From positions 1-58,018 of the forward strand of contig JAZDNG010000006.1 in assembly GCA_043800065.1 (NCBI GenBank): DNA of 58,018 bases, written 5' to 3'. The translations under genes were made by a program, and so were the position numbers. The stretch is from Candidatus Omnitrophota bacterium. GTDB lineage: Bacteria; Omnitrophota; Gorgyraeia; JAHIPI01. Positions 1,631-43,270 of the stretch are shown piece after piece; position 1 is the stretch's first letter, and each line of letters starts with the position of its first letter. The notes below the pieces were generated by a model. The model searched no databases. It worked only from the letters and a program-made list of their open reading frames with translations, and was not told the DNA's origin.

Positions 1631-4423
1631 ATGAAAGAACTCTCCAAAACATATAATCCAAAAGAAGTAGAAGAGAAGATATATAAGCTCTGGGAAGAGA
1701 AGGGGCTTTTTACGGCACGTGTCGATCCCAAGAAGAAGCCCTATTGCATAGTTATTCCCCCGCCAAACATTACCGGCATACTTCACATGGGCCATGCCCT
1801 CAATAACACGATACAGGATATATTGATCAGGTTTAAGAGGATGCAGGGGCATGAGGCGCTTTGGATGCCTGGGACCGACCACGCCGGCATAGCGACGCAG
1901 AATGTCGTGGAAAAGAGCCTGGCAAAAGAAAACCTTAAGCGCCAGGATCTGGGCCGCGAAAAGTTCATAGAAAAGGTATGGCAATGGAAGGAAGAATACG
2001 GCTCTACCATAATAAAACAGCTTAAAAAGCTGGGCTCGTCCTGCGATTGGTCGCGTACGCGTTTTACGATGGACGATGCATATTCAAAGGCGGTAACAGA
2101 AGTCTTTGTCATGCTGTACGAAAAGGGCCTCATATATCAGGGGAACTATATTATTAACTGGTGCCCCCGCTGCCACACCGCCTTATCGGATGAGGAAGCG
2201 CCACATAGAGAACTGCAGGGCCATTTGTATTACCTTCGCTATCCCTTAAAAGATGATCCGCGCGAGTTTATAGTAGTGGCGACTACGCGGCCGGAGACGA
2301 TGCTCGGCGATACGGCCGTAGCGGTAAATCCGAAAGACAAGCGCTACAAGAAACTGATAGGAAAGGCGCTTATCCTGCCCTTAATGGAACGTGAGATAAA
2401 ACTGATATCCGATCCTATGGTCGACGCCAAATTCGGAACAGGCGCCGTTAAAGTCACTCCCGCCCACGACCCCAATGACTACGCGCTCGGCAAAAAACAT
2501 AAGCTTCAGTTCATAAACGTTATGCATCCGGACGGCCGGATGAATGATAATGCCGGCGACTATAAAGATATGGATAGGTTTGAGGCGCGGGAAGTCATAT
2601 TAGAGGATCTGAAAGAGAAAGGGCTTCTCGAGAAGGTGGAGCCGCATAATCTTTCTGCCGGCCATTGCTACCGCTGCCATACTATTATTGAGCCGTATCT
2701 TTCGAAGCAGTGGTTTGTAAAAATGAAACCCCTGGCAAAACCGGCCATAGAAGTGGTAAAAAAAGGTAAGGTCAAATTCCATCCGGTGCGCTGGACAAAG
2801 GTATATTTAAATTGGATGAATAATATACAGGACTGGTGTATCTCGCGCCAGATATGGTGGGGGCATCGCTTGCCCGTTTATTATTGCAAAAAATGCGCAG
2901 AGCGGGCAAGCGAGTCGATAGTCGATGGTCGACAGTCGACAGAAGAAACAAAAACTGTGGACTGTGGACTGTGGACTGTGGACCACAAGGGAATAATTGT
3001 ATCTCGTACTAAGCCCGATAAGTGTCCCACATGCGGCTCAAGCGCGATTGAACAGGACCCTGATGTACTTGATACGTGGTTCTCGTCGTGGCTATGGCCA
3101 TTCGCGACTTTTTACTGGCCGTTTGACAGTCACAAGTCACAGGTTGCAAGTCACAAGTCGGGCAATATAGACATGAAACATGAGACCTGTGACCTGCGAC
3201 AACAGGAATTAAATTATTTTTATCCAACGGCTGTCCTTGTAACCGCGCAAGAGATAATCTTCTTCTGGGTGGCGCGCATGATAATGGCAGGCCTCGAATT
3301 CAAAAAAGAGATACCGTTTAAAGATGTTTATATACACGGCACTGTGAGAGATGATACCGGCACAAAGATGTCCAAATCTTTGGGGAATATAATAGATCCG
3401 CTTGAGGTAATAGAAAATTTCGGGGCCGACGCCCTCAGGTTCAGCATCATATCTATCACGGCTACGGGCCAGGATGTCTTTTTGTCGCCGAAGAAGTTTG
3501 AAATAGGGAGGAACTTCGCAAACAAGATCTGGAACGCCTCGCGCTATATATTAACCGTCTTGAAGAGTGATGTAGGAGTCGACCTATGCGTTTACGCCGG
3601 TGACAAAAAACTGAGCATAGCGGACAGATGGATTTTGAGCCGTTATTATTCGGCACTTAGAGATGTGCAAAAGAACATCGACCAATACCGCTTAAATGAC
3701 GCCGCAAGCCGTATCTATGAATTCTTCTGGCATGATTTCTGCGATTGGTATATAGAATTTTCCAAGCTTACGCAGCAGGATGAAGCGACACAGGTCATCC
3801 TGTATAAGGTCCTTGAGAAGTCGCTTAGGATGCTGCATCCTTTTATGCCGTTTATCACCGAGGAAATCTGGCAGAACCTGCCCCACAACGAAGGGCCGGT
3901 CATGGCAAGCTCATGGCCGCATGCGCAGAAACAATTTATATCGAAGGAGCTGGAAGAAAGCGTGGCCGATATAATAGAAGTCATAACTGCCATAAGAAAT
4001 ATACGCGCGGAATGGAATATAGACGCGAAAGCGGAGATAAGCGCCGTCCTCTCTCACAAAAACACGGAAACAGGCGCCGTATTAAAAGAATTTGACGGCT
4101 ACATAAAGAGATTGTGCCGTTTGAAGTCACTTGAATACGGAAAAGGCCTCAAAAAACCCGCGCATTCGGCATACGCGCCTTCAAAAGTCGCGGAGGTATA
4201 TATTCCGCTCGAAGGTGTAATAGATTTTGAGAAAGAGTCGGTACGGCTGAAAAAGAAGTGCGATGAGGTAAAGAAGAACATGGGGTCGCTGGAGGCGAGG
4301 CTGAAAGATAAGAATTTTATTGCCAGGGCTCCGGCCGAAATAATAGAGAGAAATAAGCTCTCCAAGTCGGAACTCAAAAGTACCCTGCAGCGCCTGGAAG
4401 AGAACCTAATGGATATCGAATAA
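1631..4423 (+). CDS. valS: valine--tRNA ligase with two repeat-derived in-frame insertions
   Basis: PPPNITGILHMGH (HIGH), DWCISRQIWWGH, KMSKS, C-terminal coiled coil. Confidence 0.97.
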   Translation: MKELSKTYNPKEVEEKIYKLWEEKGLFTARVDPKKKPYCIVIPPPNITGILHMGHALNNTIQDILIRFKRMQGHEALWMPGTDHAGIATQNVVEKSLAKENLKRQDLGREKFIEKVWQWKEEYGSTIIKQLKKLGSSCDWSRTRFTMDDAYSKAVTEVFVMLYEKGLIYQGNYIINWCPRCHTALSDEEAPHRELQGHLYYLRYPLKDDPREFIVVATTRPETMLGDTAVAVNPKDKRYKKLIGKALILPLMEREIKLISDPMVDAKFGTGAVKVTPAHDPNDYALGKKHKLQFINVMHPDGRMNDNAGDYKDMDRFEAREVILEDLKEKGLLEKVEPHNLSAGHCYRCHTIIEPYLSKQWFVKMKPLAKPAIEVVKKGKVKFHPVRWTKVYLNWMNNIQDWCISRQIWWGHRLPVYYCKKCAERASESIVDGRQSTEETKTVDCGLWTVDHKGIIVSRTKPDKCPTCGSSAIEQDPDVLDTWFSSWLWPFATFYWPFDSHKSQVASHKSGNIDMKHETCDLRQQELNYFYPTAVLVTAQEIIFFWVARMIMAGLEFKKEIPFKDVYIHGTVRDDTGTKMSKSLGNIIDPLEVIENFGADALRFSIISITATGQDVFLSPKKFEIGRNFANKIWNASRYILTVLKSDVGVDLCVYAGDKKLSIADRWILSRYYSALRDVQKNIDQYRLNDAASRIYEFFWHDFCDWYIEFSKLTQQDEATQVILYKVLEKSLRMLHPFMPFITEEIWQNLPHNEGPVMASSWPHAQKQFISKELEESVADIIEVITAIRNIRAEWNIDAKAEISAVLSHKNTETGAVLKEFDGYIKRLCRLKSLEYGKGLKKPAHSAYAPSKVAEVYIPLEGVIDFEKESVRLKKKCDEVKKNMGSLEARLKDKNFIARAPAEIIERNKLSKSELKSTLQRLEENLMDIE
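2914..2983. repeat. inverted heptamer-array hairpin inside valS
   Basis: GTCGATA GTCGATG GTCGACA GTCGACA, 14-nt spacer, (TGTGGAC)x4. Confidence 0.9.
3129..3200. repeat. second inverted heptamer-array hairpin inside valS (72 bp)
   Basis: GTCACAA GTCACAG GTTGCAA GTCACAA GTC ... GAC ATGAAAC ATGAGAC CTGTGAC CTGCGAC. Confidence 0.85.
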
Positions 4424-4570
4424 AAGGGGACGTTTCACTTTGATGCAACATCCTGATAATAAATAAGTTACAACCTGTCGATTTCCACTTTATGCTAGCC
4501 AAAAGCGGAAAATGACCATTTATAACCTGTTGAAAAACAAGGAGTTGTGACAAAGTGAAACGTCCCCTTT
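4423..4570. mobile_element. 148-bp MITE-like element with perfect 20-bp terminal inverted repeats
   Basis: AAAGGGGACGTTTCACTTTG (4423-4442) / CAAAGTGAAACGTCCCCTTT (4551-4570); left half recurs at ~28840-28904. Confidence 0.75.
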
Positions 4571-4585
4571 ATGGAGTGATGTGAT

Positions 4586-10475: not shown

Positions 10476-10476
10476 G

Positions 10477-10657
10477 TGAGACCCAGACTTACGGAGCGAA
10501 GCGCTCGTAAGTCTGACGGTCGAACTTACCCTTGACATTTTGCCAATGTTTGTTCATATGTAAAATGGCAAGGGTTAAATTCGCCCTAACAGGCAAAAAG
10601 AAAGGCTACAACTTACGTTACCCGCAGCAAAATGCGTTTCCGTAAGTTGTGGGCTCA
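10477..10657. repeat. multi-branched hairpin element between groES and groEL
   Basis: Outer TGAGACCCA/TGGGCTCA; three inner stems, two of them ACTTACG...CGTAAGT. Confidence 0.7.
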
Positions 10658-10662
10658 TTTAA

Positions 10663-13748: not shown

Positions 13749-16700
13749 ATGAAACATTCAGAATTCGTCCACCTTCATGTCCACACTCAATACAGCCTTC
13801 TTGACGGCGCATGCCTTATACCGAAACTTTTAGAGGCCGCCAAGACAGAAAGAATGCCCGCACTCGCCATAACCGACCATGGCAATATGTTCGGCGCCAT
13901 AGAATTCTATGTCCAGGCGTTAGGCCACGGAATAAAACCACTCATAGGCTCTGAAGTCTACATAGCGCCTGACAGCCGGTTCGAAAAATCGGCGCACGGC
14001 ATCCATGACGCTTCTTTCCATCTGCTCCTTCTCGCCAAGGATATGGAAGGTTATAAAAATCTGATGAAGCTGATAACCGCCGGTTATCTGGAGGGCTTCT
14101 ATTACCGGCCGAGGATCGACAAAGAATTGTTGAGCCAGCATTCAAAAGGCCTCGTTTGTTTATCGGCATGCCTTAAGGGCGAGATCCCCCACCTGATAAA
14201 AAGCCAGCAGATCGAACAGGCAAGAAATACCGCAATATTTTTTAAGGAAATATTCGGAAAAGATTTTTACCTGGAGCTGCAGGACAACCTCATAAAAGAA
14301 CAGTACGCCGTTAATACCGCGCTCCTTGAATTTTCGCGCCAGCTCGATATTCCTGTCGTCGCCACAAACGATGTCCATTATGTTAAAAAAGAACATGCCC
14401 GCGCGCACGAAGCGCTCTTAGCTTTACAGACGCAAACGACGCTTGATGATCCCGGCAGGATGCGAATGCAGACAGATGAGTTTTACTTAAAAAGCCCCCA
14501 GGAGATGGCGCGTAAATTCCAAACCGAGTGCCCCGAGGCCCTTAAGAATACTCTAGAAGTTGCGGAAAAATGCAACCTTGAGCTGGATTTCAAAAAGACA
14601 CACCTGCCTCATTATAAAGTGCCTGCCGGCAAGAAAAGAGAAGAATACCTTCGCGAACTTGTATGGGAAGGTATTACGAAAAGATATCTCACCATTACCG
14701 ATGAGATCAAAACGAGAATTGAACATGAGCTCAATATAATAGAAAAGGCCGGGTATACCAGTTATTTTCTGATCGCCTGGGATTTTGTCCATTACGCGAA
14801 AGAGAAAAGTATCCCCGTAGGGCCGGGCAGGGGAAGCGCGGCGGGCAGTATCGTGAGTTATTCGCTCGGCATAACCGACATAGACCCGCTTAAATACGAC
14901 CTGCTTTTTGAAAGGTTCCTTAATCCGGAGAGGGTAAGCCTGCCCGACATAGATATCGACTTTTGCTACGAGCAGCGGAATGAAGTAATAAAGTATGTCG
15001 TGGAAAAATACTCAAAGGACAATGTCGCCCAAATAATAACGTTTGGGACGATGATGGCCAAAGGCGTTATACGCGATGTTGGCAGGGTCATGGGCCTGGC
15101 TTACAGTGAAGTCGACAAAATCGCGAAGATGGTACCCAACGACCTGAATATTACACTTACGCAGGCGCTTAAGTCTTCGCCGGAACTGAATAGCCTTTAC
15201 AAGACGGATCCGCGCGTAACGCAGCTTATAGACATATCCCTCGCGCTGGAAGGGCTTACGCGCCATGCCTCTACACATGCCGCCGGTGTCGTAATTTGCG
15301 AAAAACCGCTTACCGAATTTATACCGTTATTTAAGATAGGCGAAGGCCAGATAACTACGGGCTATCCGATGACCTCGCTTGAGAAGATAGGCCTTCTTAA
15401 GATGGATTTTCTGGGGCTAAGGACTTTAACCGTCATTGACGAGGCGCTGAAAATAATAAAGAAGATAAGGAATATCGATATAGACATAGCCGCCATACCT
15501 CTCGATGATGAAGCAACGTACCGCCTCCTCGCGGATGCCAATTCCGCGGGCGTTTTTCAGTTAGAAAGCTCCGGCATGAGAGATCTTTTAAGGAAATTTA
15601 ATCCGGAAAAGTTTGAGGACCTCATCTCTATACTCGCGCTTTTTAGGCCGGGTCCGATGGGGAGCGGCATGCTAGATGACTTCATAGAAAGGAAGCATGG
15701 GAAAATAGAGATAAAATATGACCATCCGAGCCTTGAACCTATTTTAAAGGATACCTACGGCATAATAGTCTTTCAGGAGCAGGTCATGAGGATCGCATCT
15801 ACACTGGCGGGTTTTACGCTTGCACAAGCCGATTCATTGAGGCGCGCCATGAGCAAAAAAACGCCCGAGATAATGACGGAGACGCGCAAGCACTTCCTGG
15901 ACGGATGCGTAAAGAAGGGCATAAACGCCAGGACAGCGGATAAGATATTCAATCTGATAGAATATTTCGCGGGTTACGGATTCAATAAATGTGTGGCCGG
16001 CTCCACTAAATTAACGGATGCTGTGACGGGCAGCATTATAACAGCCGAAGAACTATATCGCACCAAGCGGCTCCTAAAAACTTTCAGTTGCGACGAAAAG
16101 CATTTTAAAATTATACCTCAAAAAGTAAGAGATGTGGTCTGTAATGGGCCCAAAAAGGTATACCGTTTAAAAACATATTCTGGAAAAGAAATTATTGCAA
16201 CGAATAATCACCCTTTTCTTACGGCGGAAGGATGGCGAAAATTGGAATGCCTGAAACCGGGCGATATGATCGGTGCACCCAGAAAAATTCCTGCCCCTTC
16301 TTCTCCTCAGCGAATGGAAGAATATAAAATCATATCTTTAGCCAATTTGCTTTCCGAAGGCAACCTGTGCCATACGAGCGGTCTTTATTTTTATAGCAAT
16401 AGCAGAAAGGCAGTAGAAGAATTCGCGAAAAATATAGAGCGCTTTGACAGGACAAGGGCCAGAATATACGAAAGAAGCGGTAAATACGAAGTATATGTAG
16501 GGACAGGTTTAGATGCAAGATTCCCTAAAAGTCATATCCCGTGGAATAAAAAGGAAGCCGTCGGAGCATGCGTAGATGATCATAAAATCTTAAGGTCGGA
16601 AGCGCGAATGTGGATAGAAGAATTGGCCTTGAGCGGCAAAAAGGCCTATGAGAAGTTTATTCCACCGCAGATTTATATTCTGCCCGTGGATCAACTGGCC

Positions 16701-18590
16701 CTGTTCATAGGAATTTTATGGTCGGGAGACGGTTTCGTTTTTGGCAGAAATAACACCATTCCGTTTTATGCAACATCTTCAGAAAAAATGGCAAAAGATA
16801 TCCAGGACTTATTGTTGAAATTAGAGATAATGTCGGTGATCAAAAAGAAGAAGTTCAGGTATGAGTACAAAGGAAGAAAAAAAGATAAATATGGTTACGC
16901 AATTTATTTGTTCAGCCGAAAGAGCATCGATAACTTTTTAGAAAAGGTATGCCCGCATATTATTGAAAAAGACGATCAGATAATCCGGTTGAGAGGTTAT
17001 TACGAAAATACAGCCAAAAATATGGAGTCGAAAGACATCGTCCCTTCGGCTATAAAGGCTGTCATAAAAAAGGAAAAAGAAAACGCCGGCAAGACATGGC
17101 GCGATATTGAGAAAGAAAGTGGTGTTTGTGTAAGAGAATTATGCGGAAGCGTTAAGTCCTATAAGAAAGGCTTCCGAAGGGATACCATAAAAAAGCTTGC
17201 CGCATATTTTGACTCTGCCGAATTGCTCAAATATGCAGAATCTGACATTTTTTGGGACCGCATAGTGTCTATTGAGAATGCAGGTATCGAAAATACTTAC
17301 GACATTGAAATGGAAGGGGTGCATAATTTTATTGCCGATGGAATCATAGTTCACAATTCCCATTCGGCCGCGTACGCGATGATATCCTACAGAACCGCGT
17401 ATCTCAAGGCCAATTATCCTGTGGAATTTATGACAGCGCTCCTTACTTCGGAAAAAGACAATACCGATAAAATCGCCGTCTATATTGACGAAGCTGAAAG
17501 GCTGGGCATAAATGTTTTGCCTCCCGATGTTAACGAGAGTTTTTCAAAATTTACGGTTGTGAACGATAAGAGCCCCGACCAAAAATATGACAAGGCGATA
17601 TGTTTCGGACTCTCGGCCGTAAAGAACGCCGGCCACCACGCGATAGATTCCATTATTACGATGAGAGAGAAGGAAGGTGGGTTTAAATCGCTCTACCACT
17701 TCTGCGAGCATATAGATTCTCGCGCGGTTAATAGAAAAGTGATAGAAAGCCTTATAAAATGCGGCGCCTTCGATTCGTTTAAACTCCACCGGTCCCAGCT
17801 CGTCGCTATACTCGATAAGGCCATGGAAGTGGCCGGAGGCATACAAAAAGACAGACAGAACGGCCAATTTTCATTTTTTGACACATTTGAAAATGAGGAT
17901 AATTTCAAAAAGAGTTTTCAGGACATACCCGACATAAAGGAATGGCCGGAGAGCCAGCTCTTGGCCTTTGAAAAGGAGATGCTCGGTTTTTATATTACGA
18001 AACACCCTCTCGCCCGGTTCGAAAAGATACTGAGGATATACGGCAATGCCAATGTTATGAGCCTGGGCACTAAGCGCGACGGAGAAAATATCTTTATAGG
18101 CGGAATATTAAATACGGTAAGGCTGACCACCACCAAAAAGACGGGCGAGCGGATGGCGATAGCAAGGCTCGAAGACCTTACCGGAATAGTGGAGGTCCTC
18201 GTCTTTCCGAAATCTTATACCAAAATAGGAAAGCATATAAAAGCGGACAGCATGCTGTTTATAAACGGCCGTCTCAGCTTACGCGAAGAAGAGCCGAAGA
18301 TCATCGCGGAAGAGGCAACGCCTATCGAAGAAGTGCAGGAGAAGAAGACAAAAGCGCTATCCATAAAATTGATCACATCCGGCCTGAACAAAAAGGCCCT
18401 GGAGTCGCTTAAGCTGATACTTTCAAATCACAAAGGCGAAATACCGGCATATATACATTTTCAGACACCCGCCAATAAAAGAGTGGCGCTTGCGATAGGC
18501 GCAGACTTCAGAGTAAGGCCCTCGGCAGAACTCATCAATGAAATAGAAGAGCTTCTGGGTGCGGGCAGCGTCAGCGCCCAAAGCGCTTAA
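13749..18590 (+). CDS. dnaE: DNA polymerase III alpha subunit, intein-containing
   Basis: PHP HLHVHTQYSLLDG, GRGSAAGS, PDIDID, KMDFLGL; 1157 aa after removing the intein. Confidence 0.97.
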   Translation: MKHSEFVHLHVHTQYSLLDGACLIPKLLEAAKTERMPALAITDHGNMFGAIEFYVQALGHGIKPLIGSEVYIAPDSRFEKSAHGIHDASFHLLLLAKDMEGYKNLMKLITAGYLEGFYYRPRIDKELLSQHSKGLVCLSACLKGEIPHLIKSQQIEQARNTAIFFKEIFGKDFYLELQDNLIKEQYAVNTALLEFSRQLDIPVVATNDVHYVKKEHARAHEALLALQTQTTLDDPGRMRMQTDEFYLKSPQEMARKFQTECPEALKNTLEVAEKCNLELDFKKTHLPHYKVPAGKKREEYLRELVWEGITKRYLTITDEIKTRIEHELNIIEKAGYTSYFLIAWDFVHYAKEKSIPVGPGRGSAAGSIVSYSLGITDIDPLKYDLLFERFLNPERVSLPDIDIDFCYEQRNEVIKYVVEKYSKDNVAQIITFGTMMAKGVIRDVGRVMGLAYSEVDKIAKMVPNDLNITLTQALKSSPELNSLYKTDPRVTQLIDISLALEGLTRHASTHAAGVVICEKPLTEFIPLFKIGEGQITTGYPMTSLEKIGLLKMDFLGLRTLTVIDEALKIIKKIRNIDIDIAAIPLDDEATYRLLADANSAGVFQLESSGMRDLLRKFNPEKFEDLISILALFRPGPMGSGMLDDFIERKHGKIEIKYDHPSLEPILKDTYGIIVFQEQVMRIASTLAGFTLAQADSLRRAMSKKTPEIMTETRKHFLDGCVKKGINARTADKIFNLIEYFAGYGFNKCVAGSTKLTDAVTGSIITAEELYRTKRLLKTFSCDEKHFKIIPQKVRDVVCNGPKKVYRLKTYSGKEIIATNNHPFLTAEGWRKLECLKPGDMIGAPRKIPAPSSPQRMEEYKIISLANLLSEGNLCHTSGLYFYSNSRKAVEEFAKNIERFDRTRARIYERSGKYEVYVGTGLDARFPKSHIPWNKKEAVGACVDDHKILRSEARMWIEELALSGKKAYEKFIPPQIYILPVDQLALFIGILWSGDGFVFGRNNTIPFYATSSEKMAKDIQDLLLKLEIMSVIKKKKFRYEYKGRKKDKYGYAIYLFSRKSIDNFLEKVCPHIIEKDDQIIRLRGYYENTAKNMESKDIVPSAIKAVIKKEKENAGKTWRDIEKESGVCVRELCGSVKSYKKGFRRDTIKKLAAYFDSAELLKYAESDIFWDRIVSIENAGIENTYDIEMEGVHNFIADGIIVHNSHSAAYAMISYRTAYLKANYPVEFMTALLTSEKDNTDKIAVYIDEAERLGINVLPPDVNESFSKFTVVNDKSPDQKYDKAICFGLSAVKNAGHHAIDSIITMREKEGGFKSLYHFCEHIDSRAVNRKVIESLIKCGAFDSFKLHRSQLVAILDKAMEVAGGIQKDRQNGQFSFFDTFENEDNFKKSFQDIPDIKEWPESQLLAFEKEMLGFYITKHPLARFEKILRIYGNANVMSLGTKRDGENIFIGGILNTVRLTTTKKTGERMAIARLEDLTGIVEVLVFPKSYTKIGKHIKADSMLFINGRLSLREEEPKIIAEEATPIEEVQEKKTKALSIKLITSGLNKKALESLKLILSNHKGEIPAYIHFQTPANKRVALAIGADFRVRPSAELINEIEELLGAGSVSAQSA
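15990..17357 (+). mobile_element. intein with LAGLIDADG homing endonuclease (456 aa)
   Basis: GYGFNK|CVAG...HNFIADGIIVHN|SHSAAY; block B ATNNHPF; LANLLSEG and FIGILWSGDG motifs. Confidence 0.95.
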
Positions 18591-19826: not shown

Positions 19827-21143
19827 ATGGAAAAAATTCAGTCTTTAAAGGGCATGAGCGATATCCTGCCGCCGGATGTTTATTTATGGCAGCACGTGGA
19901 AGAGGTGGTGAGAAGATTTCTTGCCCGTTACGGTTATGAAGAGATCAGGACGCCCATGCTTGAAGAGAGCGTTCTTTTCAACCGGAGTATAGGCGAGGAG
20001 ACAGACATAGTAAACAAGGAGATGTATAGCTTTATTGACAAGGGAGGCAGAAACATTGCGCTTCGTCCGGAAGGTACGGCGCCGATAGTCCGTTCATTCA
20101 TACAGCACAATATAGATCTGCAGGACCTGGTGAAATTGTATTATGTGGGGCCTATGTTCCGAAGCGAGCGGCCGCAAAAAGGAAGAAGCAGGCAGTTTCA
20201 TCAGATAGGGGTAGAGGCAATAGGTTCTTCCAATCCCTATGTGGACGCCGGCATGGTCGTTTTAATGAAAGAGCTTCTTTTAAATATAGGTATAAGCGGC
20301 TTTGAAGTAAAACTCAATAGCTTAGGGTGCTCTACCGACAAGAAAAAATTTGCCGAAGCGCTGCATAAACATTTTTCGCGTGAAAAGAGCAGGTTATGCG
20401 ATGATTGCAAAGTGCGCCTGGACAAGAATGTGCTGCGAATACTGGACTGTAAAGTCGAGTCCTGCAGAGCCCTTGTCAGAAACTCGCCCAAAGCAAAGGA
20501 TTTTCTTTGCGAGAGCTGCGTGACGCACTATACAAAAGTAAAAGAACTTCTTACCAAGCATACGCCCGTTGAATACAAAGAAGACGGAAATATTGTAAGA
20601 GGCCTGGATTATTACACAGGCACTGTTTTTGAGGTCAGCCATACCGCATTGGGCGCGCAGGACGCCATAGCGGCGGGCGGTAGGTATGACAATCTGATAG
20701 AAGATTTTGGCGGTAAAAAGACAGGCGCGATAGGATTTGCTATCGGCATGGAGCGACTTTTAATGGCATTGCCTGCTCTTAAGCGAGAAGAGATATTGGC
20801 GGAAAGAAGCAAGCAATTGGACCTATTCGCTGTAACGACAAGCTCTGCGGCATATGACAAGGCATATGAGGTTATAGAAGGCTTGAGGGATAAAGAGGAC
20901 ATATTCTGCGAGATAAATTATGACGTAGGTCGGTCCCTAAAGTCGCAGATGAATCTGGCAAATAAAAAAAATGCCGGATTTGTGGTGATCTTCGGAGATG
21001 ATGAACTGAAGAAAGGCGAAGTAGTGCTGCGCAATATGAAGACGGCGAAGCAGGTAACCGTGCGGCTGGATCGTATCTATGAAGATTTGAAGCGAGAGTT
21101 GCTAGGATGTACCACTAGCGGTCGCAATGGCCCAAAAGACTAA
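19827..21143 (+). CDS. hisS: histidine--tRNA ligase
   Basis: KEMY, LRPEGTAP, ERPQKGR, RGLDYYT, GGRYD. Confidence 0.97.
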   Translation: MEKIQSLKGMSDILPPDVYLWQHVEEVVRRFLARYGYEEIRTPMLEESVLFNRSIGEETDIVNKEMYSFIDKGGRNIALRPEGTAPIVRSFIQHNIDLQDLVKLYYVGPMFRSERPQKGRSRQFHQIGVEAIGSSNPYVDAGMVVLMKELLLNIGISGFEVKLNSLGCSTDKKKFAEALHKHFSREKSRLCDDCKVRLDKNVLRILDCKVESCRALVRNSPKAKDFLCESCVTHYTKVKELLTKHTPVEYKEDGNIVRGLDYYTGTVFEVSHTALGAQDAIAAGGRYDNLIEDFGGKKTGAIGFAIGMERLLMALPALKREEILAERSKQLDLFAVTTSSAAYDKAYEVIEGLRDKEDIFCEINYDVGRSLKSQMNLANKKNAGFVVIFGDDELKKGEVVLRNMKTAKQVTVRLDRIYEDLKRELLGCTTSGRNGPKD

Positions 21144-21164
21144 AGATGGCGGCAAAGACGAGAG

Positions 21165-21214
21165 GGGGACATTTTCCGTTCTATAGCAAGGCTATTTCAA
21201 AGGAAAGTGTCCCC
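21165..21214. repeat. GGGGAC...GTCCCC inverted repeat
   Basis: GGGGACATTTTCC / GGAAAGTGTCCCC. Confidence 0.7.
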
Positions 21215-21230
21215 GACACGAGGGAGCTAA

Positions 21231-28028: not shown

Positions 28029-28784
28029 ATGTCAATACACACCACCGATGCCATAATATTGAGGAAGCGGGATATCCGCGAAACAAGCCTTTTGGTTACG
28101 TTTTTTACGCGCGATTTTGGCAAGATAAAGGGGCTCTTAAAGGGGGTAAGGGGGCCAAGGGGTCCCTTAGGTTATCAGGTCCAGCCGTTCACGCAAAGCC
28201 GCATAGTATTCTACGAATCCAAGAAATCCGATATCCACATCGTCTCCCAATGCGACCTCACGGACTTCTTCGAAGACGTCCGCAAAGACATAGTAAAGAC
28301 CGGCTACGCGTATTATTTTATAGAACTTGTCGATGCCCTCACCGAAAATAGCGGCCAGGGTGCTGAGATATTTGACCTTCTATTAAACAGCTTAAACCTC
28401 CTTAAGACCGACGCATCGCCAAAGCGCATCGCGCGCATACTTGAGATAAAATTGCTTTTACTTTCCGGAGTCATGCCGCGGCTCGATGCCTGCGTGGCCT
28501 GCGGCGGAGCGGTAGATTCGAAGAACGGCGCACTGCGCTTCAGCTATAAATTCGGCGGCCTCTTATGCAAGAACTGCACGGCCAAGGACTCAACGTGCCG
28601 CCAAATCCTTGCCGGCACTGTGAATTTTATCGACCACATCGAGCGCACCACATACGAAAAGGCCGAGAATATCAAGGTATCCAAGGATGTAGGTGAGGAG
28701 CTCGAAGGCCTCATGAAGCGCTTCCTTGCGTATCAATTAGATACGCAGTTGAAGTCGCTGGAGTTTTTGAAGGCGATTACGTAG
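28029..28784 (+). CDS. recO: DNA repair protein RecO
   Basis: N-terminal OB fold (FTRDFGKI), Zn finger CVACG...CKNC. Confidence 0.92.
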   Translation: MSIHTTDAIILRKRDIRETSLLVTFFTRDFGKIKGLLKGVRGPRGPLGYQVQPFTQSRIVFYESKKSDIHIVSQCDLTDFFEDVRKDIVKTGYAYYFIELVDALTENSGQGAEIFDLLLNSLNLLKTDASPKRIARILEIKLLLLSGVMPRLDACVACGGAVDSKNGALRFSYKFGGLLCKNCTAKDSTCRQILAGTVNFIDHIERTTYEKAENIKVSKDVGEELEGLMKRFLAYQLDTQLKSLEFLKAIT

Positions 28785-28788
28785 CACC

Positions 28789-28814
28789 GTCATTGCGAGC
28801 GAAGCGAAGCAGTC
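28789..28814. repeat. GTCATTGCGAG-type REP-like hairpin
   Basis: GTCATTGCGAGCGAAGCGAAGCAGTC; related inverted copy at 43218-43257. Confidence 0.75.
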
Positions 28815-28820
28815 CCATTT

Positions 28821-28921
28821 GATAAAAGGGGACGTGATAAAAGGGGACGTTTCACTTTGATGCAACGTCTTTATAGGTAGTGAGTTACAATCGGTCGATT
28901 TCCATTTGAAAAAAAGGGGAC
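28821..28921. mobile_element. partial second copy of the 4423 MITE with 15-bp tandem duplication
   Basis: (GATAAAAGGGGACGT)x2 then TTCACTTTGATGCAAC...AGTTACAA...GTCGATTTCCA as at 4423-4487; another AAAAGGGGAC at 28912. Confidence 0.75.
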
Positions 28922-28979
28922 GGGGCGCTTTGGGACATTCACCAAAACCAAATATCGTGCAGCTGGAGGAGCGTTTTAA

Positions 28980-29285
28980 GTGAAGAAATGCCCGTATTGT
29001 GCCGAAGAAATACAGGATGACGCGGTTAAATGCAGATATTGTAATGAATTTCTGAATAAAACTCCGCCGCGGCAATGGTATTTCAGGACATCCGTGTTTA
29101 TAATTGCGTTTTTGTGCATTGGGCCACTCGCGCTACCGCTTGTCTGGTTTAACCCCTGTTATAACCGGGCAAAAAAGATAATTATAAGCATTGTCGTTTT
29201 AATACTTAGTTATTACCTGTGGATTTTTTTCATGAAGTCTCTCGAATCTGTTAAGGAGTATTATAAATTATTCCAGCAGTTTTAA
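28980..29285 (+). CDS. zinc-ribbon membrane protein
   Basis: [20 protein letters not shown] plus two TM segments. Confidence 0.8.
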
Positions 29286-29291
29286 TCTTTT

Positions 29292-29350
29292 AGTAATTGG
29301 TGACGTCCTGAAAAGAGTAATTGGTGACGTCCTGAAAAGGGACACCCTGG
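29292..29350. repeat. 24-bp tandem duplication plus 25-bp inter-gene repeat
   Basis: (AGTAATTGGTGACGTCCTGAAAAG)x2; GACGTCCTGAAAAGGGACACCCTGG (29326-29350) is 23/25 identical to 30159-30183. Confidence 0.85.
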
Positions 29351-29396
29351 AACGGGAGCTGAGGCGGAAAGCGTACCTATATTTAGGAGATGCAGC

Positions 29397-29720
29397 ATGG
29401 ATATGAAGAAGTCGGCAACTCATAGAAAATGCAAGTATCCGGACTGTAACCACGTTCTTAGCATTTATAACCATTCGGCCTATTGCAACGTCCATATCGG
29501 CGTGATGTCTCATGACGATAATATAAAAGCGGCAGAAAGGGTACGGGTTAAAGAGGGACGCCTTAAAAAGGTAAAAGATAAGAAGATAGTAAGGAAATGT
29601 AAAAAGTGCGGGGTACCGCTGGAAGGGGTCCTGTATAATTTGATTACCGCAAAGATATTCAGGGTTAAGCCTTCGGACAAGGATCCGGGGATTTGTAATA
29701 AGTGCATCGACAAGCCATAA
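29397..29720 (+). CDS. small basic protein with two putative Zn-binding modules
   Basis: C-x4-C...C-x2-H and CKKC...CNKC; SD AGGAG. Confidence 0.7.
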   Translation: MDMKKSATHRKCKYPDCNHVLSIYNHSAYCNVHIGVMSHDDNIKAAERVRVKEGRLKKVKDKKIVRKCKKCGVPLEGVLYNLITAKIFRVKPSDKDPGICNKCIDKP

Positions 29721-29790
29721 CTAGTGCCGTTCTAACCTGGTCAGAATTGGCAGATTAGAATAAGGGAGCGGCCTGCGGAAATAAGGGAAT

Positions 29791-30153
29791 ATGTACAATA
29801 TAAAATTAGGCGATAACGGTAATAGATTGGACGTTAGCTATAAAGATCATTTTGATCTCCGGCAGGGGGAGCAATTCTATAAAGAACTTCAGGAAACAGC
29901 GCCTAAACTAAAAAAGGGCTTCATGGTATTGGCGGACATGTCTTCATTGGAGCGAATGGACTTAAGCGCGAAGTTATACGTTGAGAAGGCAATGGATTTA
30001 TTAAATAAAAAGGGTGTTTCCAAAGTAGTAAGAATTATTCCGGATGATACCAAGGATATCGGGTTCAAGATCCTCAGCATATTTCATTATTCCTCAAAAG
30101 TAGTTATACATACTTACAAATCTTATCAGGAGGCGGAAGAACATTTAAAGTAA
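29791..30153 (+). CDS. hypothetical protein, STAS/SEC14 (SpoIIAA-like) resemblance
   Basis: 120 aa, VLADMS, C-terminal SYQEAEEHL pattern. Confidence 0.6.
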   Translation: MYNIKLGDNGNRLDVSYKDHFDLRQGEQFYKELQETAPKLKKGFMVLADMSSLERMDLSAKLYVEKAMDLLNKKGVSKVVRIIPDDTKDIGFKILSIFHYSSKVVIHTYKSYQEAEEHLK

Positions 30154-30183
30154 AAGGGGACGTCCTGTAAGGGGACACCCTGG
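30151..30183. repeat. GGGGAC-family inter-gene repeat
   Basis: TAAAAGGGGACGTCCTGTAAGGGGACACCCTGG, overlapping the stop codon. Confidence 0.85.
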
Positions 30184-30201
30184 TGAAGGAGAAAGAGGAT
30201 T

Positions 30202-30648
30202 ATGGACAATAAAAAATCGGTGGGTTTGATTATAATCGGTGTGTTTGAGATTCTGATCGGTTTGTTCGGCATCTGGAACCTATATTTACTTCTTACTTTT
30301 GAAAAGAGGACCGGCAGCACCGCCGGGCTAGGATGGTTATTTTTACCTTTATTATTGGCAGCTGCCCTCTTATTCCTTTTAGGTATCGGTATAGTATTAC
30401 GCGCTAAATTGGCATGGTATTTTCATGTTATCGGTATTCCTCTTACAATCGGTGCTTTGGTTTTATTATTTATATACTGGGGGATGGGTTTTACGGATCT
30501 CGATTTTTGGATGCTAATTGCATTTCCTGCGATTGTCGCGATATTGTTAGTGTGGTATCTCATCCTTCCCGGAATAAGGGAACAGTTTTGGGTAAAAGGG
30601 GACGTGGCTGGAAGGGAACGTCCCAATACAGGAGAAATAGAAAGATGA
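30202..30648 (+). CDS. 4-TM membrane protein, C-terminus read through a GGGGAC repeat
   Basis: Hydrophobic helices; TAAAAGGGGACGT at 30593 lies inside the 3' end. Confidence 0.7.
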   Translation: MDNKKSVGLIIIGVFEILIGLFGIWNLYLLLTFEKRTGSTAGLGWLFLPLLLAAALLFLLGIGIVLRAKLAWYFHVIGIPLTIGALVLLFIYWGMGFTDLDFWMLIAFPAIVAILLVWYLILPGIREQFWVKGDVAGRERPNTGEIER

Positions 30649-30854
30649 TAGTAATCGATTATGATAAATGTTGCTGGAAGGACGGTAAATGCGTAAGCTG
30701 TGGGTGCGGCAGCGCCTGTGACGGATGCGTGGAAGCCTGTCCGGTCGGCGCGCTAGAGAGGCAGAAAAACGTAGTTTTTCATCCCGATAAATGTATTGAT
30801 TGCGGCGTATGCATAACAGCATGCAAATATGGTGCGGTAGCTATGAAGGAATAG
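30645..30854 (+). CDS. 2x[4Fe-4S] ferredoxin-like protein with extra Cys
   Basis: CDGCVEACP and CIDCGVCITAC; ATG 30645 overlaps the upstream stop. Confidence 0.85.
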   Translation: MIVIDYDKCCWKDGKCVSCGCGSACDGCVEACPVGALERQKNVVFHPDKCIDCGVCITACKYGAVAMKE

Positions 30855-30866
30855 AGAGGAAATAGC

Positions 30867-31049
30867 ATGCGTGAGGTGATTGAGATTTTGGGTATACTGG
30901 CGTTTTTATCGCTTGTCTTGGCCGTTACGACAGGGCTCATGATATTTAGGTTCCATGTCAAGGGGGTCAAGATGGAATGGCACGTCTGGTCTGCGGTCGC
31001 GACTTTAGTCTTTGCCGTTCTGCATGTAACTTTGATTGTTCTATATTAA
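30867..31049 (+). CDS. small 2-TM membrane protein with His pair
   Basis: WHVWSAVATLVFAVLH; SD GAGGA. Confidence 0.65.
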   Translation: MREVIEILGILAFLSLVLAVTTGLMIFRFHVKGVKMEWHVWSAVATLVFAVLHVTLIVLY

Positions 31050-31122
31050 AAGTCGTTCCAAAAAGACTTGATTTTGCAGTTCGCCTGTGTTAACATAGCC
31101 AAAGTTTCCCAAGGAAGGCAAG

Positions 31123-32484
31123 ATGGCCCAACAGCAAACCGATCTAATGGATAAAATAGTATCATTATGCAAGCGGCGCGGATTCGTGTTTCAATCCAGC
31201 GAAATATACGGAGGCCTGGCGAGCACGTGGGATTACGGGCCGCTTGGTGCCGAGCTTAAGCGTAACCTCAAAGACGCGTGGTGGCGCTCCAACGTTTATG
31301 AGCGCGATGACATAGAAGGACTGGATGCTTCTATTCTTATGCATCCCATGACCTGGATGGCTTCCGGCCACGTTTCCAGCTTTGAAGATACGCTCACCGA
31401 TTGCAAAGGCTGTAAAAAACGTTTTAAGGTCGAAAACCTCGTAAAGAATAAGTGCCCCGAATGCGGCGGGGACGTCACGGAGCCGCGGCAATTTAACCTC
31501 ATGCTCAAAACTCATCTCGGCGCTGTTCTTGATGAAGCAAGTCTCATATACATGAGGCCCGAGACGGCGCAGGGCATCTTTGTAAATTTTCAGAATGTCG
31601 TAAACACCTCCCGAAAAAAGATTCCATTCGGCATAGCGCAGATAGGCAAATCTTTCCGCAACGAAGTCACTACCGGAAATTTCACATTCCGCTCGCGTGA
31701 ATTCGAACAGATGGAGATAGAGTTTTTTGTTAAACCCGGCACAGATGATACGTGGTACGAAAAATGGGTCAACGAGCGGTTCAGCTGGTATACCTCACTC
31801 GGCATAAATAAAGACAGTCTTCGAAAGCGCCAGCATGAAAAAAGCGAGCTCGCGCATTACGCCAAGGCATGCACCGATATAGAATATAAATTCCCGTTCG
31901 GATGGTCAGAGCTCGAGGGTATAGCTAACAGGACGGATTTTGATTTAAAGCAGCATATGAATTTAAGCGGTAAAGACCTGCAGTATTTCGACGAAGAGAC
32001 GAAGGAGAGATATATTCCCTACGTCATAGAGCCGTCAGGAGGCATAGACAGGTCCATCCTGGCATTTCTTGCCGATGCCTACCGCGAGGAAAAAGTGAAC
32101 CCCGCCCCTCGCAAAGACCCTTTTCTTAGCACGAGGGGCGGGGTGAAAGACGAAAAGCGCGTCGTACTCGGCCTTCATAAAAAACTAGCGCCGATAAAAG
32201 CGGCGATCCTCCCGCTTTTAAAGAATAGAGGAGAGGTCGTCAGCATGGCAAAGTCCCTTGCGGCCGATTTAAGGAAATCCTTAAGAGTGATGTATGACGA
32301 TACTGCCTCCATCGGCAGATTGTACCGCCGACAGGACGAAGTGGGTACGCCTTATTGCATTACGATAGACGTAGAGAGTCTTACGGATAAAAAAGTAACG
32401 GTGCGCGACCGCGATACCATGAAACAGGATCGCGTCGCGCTGGATAAGGTCAAAGAATATCTGGAAGAGCAGTTTAACATGTAG
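31123..32484 (+). CDS. glyQS: glycine--tRNA ligase (alpha2 type)
   Basis: KRRGF, DYGPLG, RPETAQGIF, FRNE, YRRQDEVGTPY. Confidence 0.96.
   Translation: MAQQQTDLMDKIVSLCKRRGFVFQSSEIYGGLASTWDYGPLGAELKRNLKDAWWRSNVYERDDIEGLDASILMHPMTWMASGHVSSFEDTLTDCKGCKKRFKVENLVKNKCPECGGDVTEPRQFNLMLKTHLGAVLDEASLIYMRPETAQGIFVNFQNVVNTSRKKIPFGIAQIGKSFRNEVTTGNFTFRSREFEQMEIEFFVKPGTDDTWYEKWVNERFSWYTSLGINKDSLRKRQHEKSELAHYAKACTDIEYKFPFGWSELEGIANRTDFDLKQHMNLSGKDLQYFDEETKERYIPYVIEPSGGIDRSILAFLADAYREEKVNPAPRKDPFLSTRGGVKDEKRVVLGLHKKLAPIKAAILPLLKNRGEVVSMAKSLAADLRKSLRVMYDDTASIGRLYRRQDEVGTPYCITIDVESLTDKKVTVRDRDTMKQDRVALDKVKEYLEEQFNM
32095..32147. repeat. 48-bp in-frame palindromic insertion in glyQS
   Basis: 13-bp arms ACCCCGCCCCTCG (32099-32111) / CGAGGGGCGGGGT (32132-32144); GTGAA at 32095 and 32143. 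Confidence 0.85.
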
Positions 32485-36789: not shown

Positions 36790-36866
36790 GCGCCTGTAGC
36801 TCAGCTGGATAGAGCACAGGTTTCCTAAACCTGGTGTCGCCCGTTCGACTCGGGCCAGGCGCGCCA
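36790..36866 (+). tRNA. tRNA-Arg(CCT)
   Basis: Cloverleaf GCGCCTG/CAGGCGC, anticodon loop TTCCTAA, TTCGA T-loop, encoded CCA. Confidence 0.95.
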
Positions 36867-42917: not shown

Positions 42918-43170
42918 TGCTCACCTCCGTTTGGTTTGGGTAAATACATCATCCCCCTACGCCGTTGTACGTGTGTATCGTCAACAATAGCTTCGGGGGA
43001 TTCCGCCTGCATGGCAAAAGAATGCCTGAGGCTACAGTAGTATACCATATTTTCGTTTATTTTTGTTGAAAAGCGCCAGTATAGCGTATATACTTAGACT
43101 AAAATAAATGAGACCATAACTTACGAGCCGTTGCTTTAGATATGTGAACGTAAGTTATAAGGTCGAATTT

Positions 43171-43257
43171 ATCCTGAGAACGCGACAAGCAGGAGCGGTC
43201 GAAGGATCCCAAAAATAGATTGCTTCGCCCCGACGATACGTCGGGGCTCGCAATGAC
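43171..43257. repeat. two adjacent REP-like hairpins
   Basis: ATCCTGAG...CGAAGGAT (43171-43207) and GATTGCTTCG-hairpin-CTCGCAATGAC (43218-43257). Confidence 0.75.
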
Positions 43258-43270
43258 ATAGGAGAAATGG

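Follow-up and report, generated by a model that had tools for sequence, protein, structure and literature searches.

The window analysed here is a 58,018-nt stretch of a Candidatus Omnitrophota genome (contig JAZDNG010000006.1 of assembly GCA_043800065.1), and the locus in question is an islet of six short, co-oriented open reading frames (ORFs), g1 to g6, which fill the 2.3-kb interval between the housekeeping genes recO and glyQS and whose spacers carry copies of a GGGGAC motif. An earlier note on this DNA had correctly picked out the six genes, present at 28980-31049, and had taken the locus for an integron-like array in which units are added at the motif. The locus is probably better described as a fast-changing, lineage-specific islet of small accessory genes, the spacers of which have been colonised by REP/TIR-type repeats (repetitive extragenic palindromes and terminal inverted repeats) of RAYT/TIRYT-like enzymes. 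The recO-glyQS junction is a true variable hot spot, and GGGGAC is no cassette site but forms the end of repeats that belong to two dispersed families. As judged from sequence, each family is tied to a predicted RAYT/TIRYT-like Y1 (HUH) single-strand-DNA transposase of its own, encoded elsewhere in the genome.

Variable gene content at the recO-glyQS junction

In all seven relatives of other genera and families, DUF502, recO, glyQS and ppdK are contiguous, with a gap of 8-177 bp between recO and glyQS. The interval measures 2.3 kb in the source genome of the window (G000; 965 kb in 41 contigs, 66.5% complete), 5.6 kb in a congener (G001; 95% complete), and at least 3 kb on a metagenome contig (L009) whose RecO is 79% identical, and the gene sets are different. 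The islet was most likely inserted before this genus and the L009 lineage diverged, in their ancestor. The G001 islet encodes a histidine phosphatase, two small secreted or membrane ORFs, an HTH_17 plus Fic/Doc pair, a 47-aa ORF, a nitroreductase, two DUF2007 proteins, the N-terminal module of g2, g4, and g5, and is without g1, g3, and g6. On L009, a response-regulator-like ORF (GGDEF-type by eye), a membrane protein, and a 59-aa Cys protein are followed by a ferredoxin (80% identical to g5), an ORF read by eye as CBS-type, and a g2-like gene; the gene order thus differs as well, the ferredoxin standing ahead of the g2-like gene. It is notable that the gene content of one junction differs among all three of these close lineages. 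Assignment of L009 to the lineage of another genome, G005, was considered and rejected, as the g2-like genes of G005 adjoin neither a ferredoxin gene nor recO.

Metagenome loci carrying both recO and glyQS were found in 10 of 80 cases. The two genes are adjacent in three of these loci, 1.1 kb apart with two ORFs in one, and 5-10 kb apart in six, which belong to distant lineages; four of the six were examined, and they contain larger recurring genes (named by eye from their N-termini), not arrays of small genes. On contig L011 (2808-3937), where RecO is 49% identical, two ORFs of 125 and 193 aa lie between recO and glyQS, and the junction therefore took up genes more than once.

The shared islet genes are under constraint. 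Compared with G001, purifying selection was observed on g4 (ratio of nonsynonymous to synonymous substitution rates, dN/dS, 0.15; 91% identity) and on g5 (0.05; 94% identity), next to a value of 0.08 for recO. A paralogue of g4 occurs on contig C38 of the source genome (38% identity). The g2 product is composite: residues 1-45 and 60-106 match separate ORFs of 49-72 aa in other genomes of the class, only the N-terminal module is found in G001 and L009, and the linker sits in REP-like DNA. Among 41 genomes (the source genome counted), homologues of g1 were found in 29, of g2 in 17, of g4 in 3, and of g3 and g6 in 2 each, the carriers of g3 being G000 and G028. The g1 homologues lie at other places, no two of four genomes examined sharing the same neighbourhood, and no g1 homologue was found in G001. 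At the islet position, g6 is missing both in G001 and in contigs of two sequencing runs, X1 and X2. An island at a tRNA gene was rejected as a candidate, since no tRNA gene borders the islet and the nearest lies at 36790.

Two features of the G001 islet were observed besides. The stop and start codons of the HTH_17 and Fic/Doc genes overlap (L001 4843-5537), a direct repeat of TTAACAATTGTTAACC precedes them, and the pair is likely a toxin-antitoxin module. Right after recO (L001 7440-7730), a palindromic element of ~260-300 bp, with long inverted repeats at its termini, takes the place in G001 of the 32-nt unrelated repeat of the source genome; contigs of run X1 show this insert as well, at 301 nt.

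Dispersed repeat families and their transposases

The sequence AAAAGGGGACGT occurs exactly at 4422, 28824, 28839, 30152, and 30594, preceded by T at every copy, and with one mismatch at 28912 (+) and 4560 (-). These seven matches compare with a shuffle mean of 0.25 and a largest value of 2 (100 shuffles). The 25-mers at 29326-29350 and 30159-30183 are identical at 23 of 25 positions (92%). The motif, the 25-mer, and two tandem duplications of 15 and 24 bp are where the earlier note had placed them, and far above chance.

The first family, REP-1 (GGGGACGTTTCNCTTTG), has the GGGGAC motif at its outer end and is found mostly as inverted doublets of 140-170 bp. The source genome contains 51 matches to GGGACGTTTCN[CT]TT, with at least 19 inverted doublets. 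The exact REP-1 pattern is found 48 times in G000, 36 times in G004, five times in G002, three times in G015, and not at all in the other 37 genomes, against one control match overall. The reference doublet at 4420-4581 adjoins housekeeping genes, its TAA is the stop codon of the upstream gene, and G001 lacks it at the same site. When this filled site was compared with the empty one (one pair), no clean target duplication was observed and the flanks differ between the genomes, and a miniature inverted-repeat transposable element (MITE) of the DDE type was tentatively rejected on this one pair. The second family, REP-2, is the 25-mer, GG[GT]GACGTCCT-N-GGGACACCC, with eight copies in the source genome and none in reversed controls.

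Tandem duplications were found at 13 of the 51 REP-1 ends, compared with 1 of 2000 random positions. They lie upstream, each joining 4-12 nt of flanking sequence to the initial 7-8 or 14-15 nt of the repeat and ending after GGGGACG(T) or after GGGGACGTTTCCCT(T); these two preferred end points may be cleavage sites of the transposase. Duplications of the same kind accompany REP-2 on contigs C40 and C38, and also the repeats around a RAYT-like gene of an Omnitrophota metagenome-assembled genome (L122). Such duplications are a genome-wide trait of the repeats, not the cassette boundary marks for which they had been taken.

Enzymes flanked by the motif, which the earlier note had proposed to look for, were found for both families. 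In a 0.78-kb element on contig C20 (5223-5998), REP-1 ends surround a 193-aa ORF (RAYT-1) that matches Pfam Y1_Tnp with 53.2 bits (cut-off 23). A second Y1 ORF (RAYT-2, on C38) lies amid three of the eight REP-2 copies, one upstream and two downstream in opposite orientation. The best NCBIfam model for both proteins is REP_Tyr_transpos, at 63.8 bits (C20) and 71.1 bits (C38); the IS200 model gives the C38 protein only 16.7 bits and is not among the matches for the C20 ORF. The supposition that the motif shares its machinery with the "MITE" is supported. RAYT-like genes number two in G000, four in G001, and one in G004, and the HUH and Y...NP motifs are invariant in all seven aligned proteins. 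Inverted repeats of their own kind stand on both sides of six of these seven genes; at the seventh (G001:C60), a downstream hairpin alone was seen. One such repeat, GGGACGTGTCAC..GGGACA, flanks a RAYT-like gene and also punctuates the G001 islet. In the species collection, the protein closest to that of C38 (59% identity) comes from a Candidatus Omnitrophota, where iterated GGGGACGTGTGA units stand to either side of its gene.

A shared leader, TTGAAAGAAAA..CTCCT..CGTATATATA..GGAGG..ATG, was observed at six of eight RAYT-like genes (L104, L105, L107, L109, L110, L122). Its CTCCT could pair with the ribosome-binding site and so provide a putative translational control as in IS200.

Within the islet, nearly every spacer contains repeat DNA of one or another type (Table 1). 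At the unrelated short repeat after recO, metagenome contigs show a depth spike (28670-28937). The truncated REP-1 half-doublet next to it has an 81% match at the orthologous place in G001. The REP-like unit that follows this half-doublet is similar to the one that flanks the RAYT-like gene on G001:C48. The 24-nt type of duplicate is also found at G000:C40:3455 and upstream of RAYT-2. The repeat type in the g2 leader has two copies in the G001 islet and two in L009 and is similar to the sequence flanking the RAYT-like gene of G004; copies of the hairpin after g2 were found in the G001 islet, at G001:C36, and at G001:C28, with a similar sequence downstream of the G001:C60 RAYT-like gene. As had been noted, the motif coincides with stop codons and one gene reads through it: g3 ends on the TAA of TAAAAGGGG (30151-30153), and g4 continues for 17 codons past the copy at 30593, in a hairpin that is kept in G001. 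The islet is a clean example of repeats that supply stop codons, extend reading frames (the g4 tail), and sit where small genes have been joined (g2).

Table 1. Genes and repeats of the recO-glyQS islet, with the reference REP-1 doublet (positions in the window)
Feature	Position	Strand	Remarks
REP-1 doublet, full reference copy outside the islet	4420..4581		fold (4424-4569) -33 kcal/mol, z -9.5
recO	28029..28784	+	left border of islet; Pfam RecO_N + RecO_C; 96% identity to G001
Unrelated short dispersed repeat (GTCATTGCGAGC...GAAGCA)	28787..28818		93% to G000:C36:1160-1187, 94% to G001:C54
15-nt tandem duplicate, unit TGATAAAAGGGGACG	28820..28834	+	flank + first 7-8 nt of REP-1; second unit 28835-28849
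REP-1 doublet, truncated left half (REPIN-like)	28835..28908	+	aligns to left half of 19 full doublets
REP-like unit GGGGACGGGGCGCTTTGGGACA	28911..28943	+	type common in G001; 86-91% to three G001 islet spacers
g1	28980..29285	+	101 aa, zinc-ribbon plus membrane helices; Zn_ribbon Pfam matches weak
24-nt tandem duplicate	29292..29315	+	flank + left arm of REP-2; second unit 29316-29339
REP-2 copy A	29316..29350 (core 29323-29347)	+	regex match
Half of another REP-like doublet (GCGGAAAG[CT]GTACC type)	29351..29377	-	in g2 leader; also in G001
g2	29397..29720	+	107 aa, Cys-rich, two small-protein modules joined
Hairpin TTCTAAC...TTAGAA	29730..29760	+	further dispersed repeat; fold z -1.85
g3	29791..30153	+	120 aa, STAS-like (weak STAS match)
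REP-2 copy B	30151..30183 (core 30156-30180)	+	regex match; TAA overlaps g3 end
g4	30202..30648	+	148 aa, multi-pass membrane protein; last 17 codons cross REP-like hairpin
REP-2-like hairpin GGGACGT...ACGTCCC	30593..30625	+	inside g4 end; fold -6.8 kcal/mol, z -3.2
g5	30645..30854	+	69 aa, 4Fe-4S ferredoxin; Pfam Fer4 36.9 bits
g6	30867..31049	+	60 aa, two-helix membrane protein; DUF4405 match weak
glyQS	31123..32484	+	right border of islet; Pfam tRNA-synt_2b + HGTP_anticodon

The window as a whole is collinear with G001 except for about ten repeat insertions, the islet, and an insert in dnaE; apart from that insert, the islet is the sole difference in gene content over the 58 kb. The repeat insertions, 75-190 bp long relative to G001, lie in spacers of the window (e.g., 1504-1629, 10476-10662, 21101-21220, 43075-43259), and several of them match many G001 contigs, representing additional small repeat families. 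The insert in the dnaE ORF (13749-18590) is in frame, 1.37 kb long (15989-17360), and missing in G001. With junctions ...GFNK|CVAG... and ...VHN|SHSAAY... and a middle part of homing-endonuclease size, it looks like an intein by its sequence.

Breakpoints and rival explanations

The blocks shared by the source genome and G001 within the islet end at seven places: 28782/28816, 28908, 29349, 29585, 30194, 30853, and 31048. The first lies at unrelated small repeats, and the two around g6 (30853, 31048) are without any repeat, none being found at the borders of g6 or in its spacers. The breakpoint at 29585 is the join of the two g2 modules, and that at 29348/29349 falls exactly at the end of REP-2 copy A. 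The earlier note's expectation that recO-glyQS content varies and breaks at the motif is thus borne out for the content and only in part for the breakpoints. Insertions and deletions of genes must break in spacers, and the spacers here are nearly all repeat DNA; coincidence of breakpoint and motif is therefore expected. Only two sequencing runs cover the stretch, each in a small part (0.08 and 0.05), and their contigs come from a G001-like relative. These contigs show the G001 forms: recO is followed by the 301-nt insert, and g6 is lacking. Joints from REP to REP were not found in run contigs covering parts of the stretch; contigs drop rare forms, and the lack of such joints is therefore a weak point.

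If the islet is one of ordinary gene turnover with colonised spacers, the predicted transposases would copy the repeats into spacers just 3' of genes, and the partial duplications of flank and left arm would be by-products of transposase activity or of replication slippage at hairpins. Genes would be gained and lost through ordinary insertion, deletion, and illegitimate recombination, for which the repeat-rich spacers would be the sole tolerated, and perhaps the preferred, break points. The repeats may favour rearrangement too.

Several observations weigh against so passive a part for the repeats, or against the assignment of their enzymes. Four of the seven breakpoints (28908, 29349, 29585, 30194) have a REP-type repeat no more than 11 nt away in at least one of the two genomes. 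Two of the eight REP-2 copies fall within 0.24% of the genome (Poisson P ~2e-4), so that the repeats are denser than chance, although REP-2 forms clusters at each of its three genomic sites. An X1 contig has a third, different left neighbour near 29319-29355. Four REP-2 copies, of which one is interrupted by another small inverted-repeat element, punctuate a second co-oriented run of genes (G000:C40:1-4300, L111), and this run differs from its counterpart on G001:C52 (L117) by the presence or absence of whole genes; the C40 gene missing in G001 has REP-2 on both sides, with no repeat at the empty site, and a G001-specific gene on C52 has a G001-type repeat just before it. The breakpoints, the density, the C40 run, and the X1 contig would all be compatible with repeats that take an active part in the turnover of genes. 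Finally, both transposase proteins score under the 80-bit NCBIfam equivalog cut-off. An origin of the G001-specific genes by movement from elsewhere was rejected, as no orthologues of them were found in G000 (66.5% complete), only weak paralogues.

The repeats could also be kept mainly for expression, as 3' hairpins that stabilise or terminate segments of polycistronic RNA, so that the punctuation of the islet would be regulatory. In agreement with this, they lie at or on stop codons in the orientation of the genes, and excerpts of PMC3733652 describe REPs as mostly downstream of coding regions and as possible RNA elements. The REP-2 hairpins of the islet, however, are weak (fold z -0.5 and -0.8), and neither promoters nor terminators are in excess, with five terminator-like sites observed against 3.9 +/- 2.3 expected, the sole one at a REP being on the opposite strand. 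There is no match to an Rfam family, and the repeats differ between the congeners while the shared genes are conserved. An explanation by expression is thus unlikely.

Capture of genes by the repeats would mean that segments bounded by same-strand REPs are cut and pasted as single strands by RAYT-like transposases, the islet being a cassette array at GGGGAC sites. REP-2 copies A and B have the same orientation and enclose g2-g3 as such a segment would require, the breakpoint at the end of copy A has seemingly been used in a third genome, and the strain-specific C40 gene between REP-2 copies and the changed order of ferredoxin and g2-like gene in L009 point in the same direction. Nevertheless, no empty site with a single leftover repeat or a clean footprint was found; the insertion or deletion of g6 and a G001-specific two-gene insert on C52 are without a repeat, and the change within g2 in G001 is not a unit boundary in the source genome. 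The genes do not appear to travel with the repeats either: homologues of g1, g2, and g3 at 14 loci of other genomes lack repeat flanks of this kind, a comparison that the earlier note had proposed, and GGGGAC is at chance level there, one site near the G005 g1 homologue lying inside the next ORF and another near the G007 g2 homologue. G004, with its 36 REP-1 ends, keeps recO and glyQS adjacent, and the lack of repeat-copy joints in the run contigs adds its small weight. We regard capture of this kind as quite improbable. What stands of the integron-like locus is a variable insertion into a conserved junction; there is no sign that units are added at GGGGAC. The broader idea that the islet and the C40 run are cassette arrays, in which same-strand repeat copies delimit modules with a single small gene or a few that HUH transposases move as single strands, is equally improbable in our view. 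If it were true, the duplications ending after GGGGACG/T or CCCT/T would be strand-transfer scars, and the system would be new.

Toxin-antitoxin pairs are common in chromosomal integrons, and a classical integron array without its integrase (a cluster of attC sites lacking integron-integrases, CALIN) would suit the short, co-oriented genes and the toxin-antitoxin-like HTH_17 and Fic/Doc pair of the G001 islet, but it is highly improbable: as the earlier note had stated for attC and IntI, no integron integrase (TIGR02249) passes the cut-off in either G000 (66.5% complete) or G001 (95% complete), the best score being 89.6 against 265 bits, a recombinase on G000:C9 passes the XerC and XerD cut-offs, and by a simple box test no attC-like RYYYAAC...GTTRRRY pair 47-137 nt apart is present in the whole window on either strand.

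Relation to known repeat and transposase systems

The islet shares with integrons and CALIN arrays its short, co-oriented accessory genes, their varying content between relatives, and the repeats between them. It differs in having neither IntI nor attC boxes, and in that its repeats are transposase-linked families spread all over the genome. Y1 HUH enzymes of the IS200/IS605 group (e.g., IS608) act on hairpins in single-stranded DNA, and passenger genes are possible between two hairpin ends. In contrast, no transposase gene lies in the islet, and left and right ends that would delimit a unit are not evident.

The literature search returned no paper pairing Omnitrophota with RAYT, REP, or TIRYT among the matches listed. 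REP-RAYT systems of Proteobacteria are reportedly the subject of work by Nunvar from 2010. As excerpts of the accounts of Bertels and Rainey present them (Bertels & Rainey 2011, PMC3116915; PMC3337134), the REP/REPIN-RAYT systems of Proteobacteria resemble the present one in their extragenic inverted doublets with long hairpins, in a transposase gene flanked by its own repeat with one transposase per family, and in repeats that come and go between close relatives. Measured against the same excerpts, the doublets here differ in lacking a GTAG tag (none in the alignment of 19 doublets, in which the repeat ends read (A)AAGGGGACG), the proteins in falling under the NCBIfam RAYT equivalog cut-off, and the genomes in holding several RAYT-like genes (G000 and G001).

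TIRtrons and their TIRYT genes (Di Nocera, De Gregorio & Rocco 2013, PMC3733652), which excerpts of that paper characterise by inverted repeats with a GGGGWSAS consensus, a consensus also given in the corresponding part of Quentin et al. 2018 (PMC6006769), probably equal subclass 2.1 of TnpA-Y1 in the classification excerpted from the latter. So far as these excerpts go, differences were noted in that REP-1 (GGGGACGT) matches only six of the eight consensus positions and that the copy number of doublets is high for a small genome, whose host is a probable Omnitrophota. As to the C-terminal helix-turn-helix (HTH) or DnaA-like domain of subclass 2.1, a Pfam scan of RAYT-1 (E <= 0.01) detected none and gave Y1_Tnp as the sole domain. 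The likeness to the excerpted TIRtrons lies in a RAYT-like Y1 gene between terminal inverted repeats, in ends of the GGGGWSAS type (GGGGTGAC upstream of RAYT-2, and GGGGACAG and GGGGTCAG at two G001 genes), and in moderately abundant repeat families occurring as singles, dimers, and clusters. The new cassette system that had been proposed for the islet is thereby replaced with a documented one, TIR/REP repeats and their RAYT-like transposases, here in a small Omnitrophota genome.

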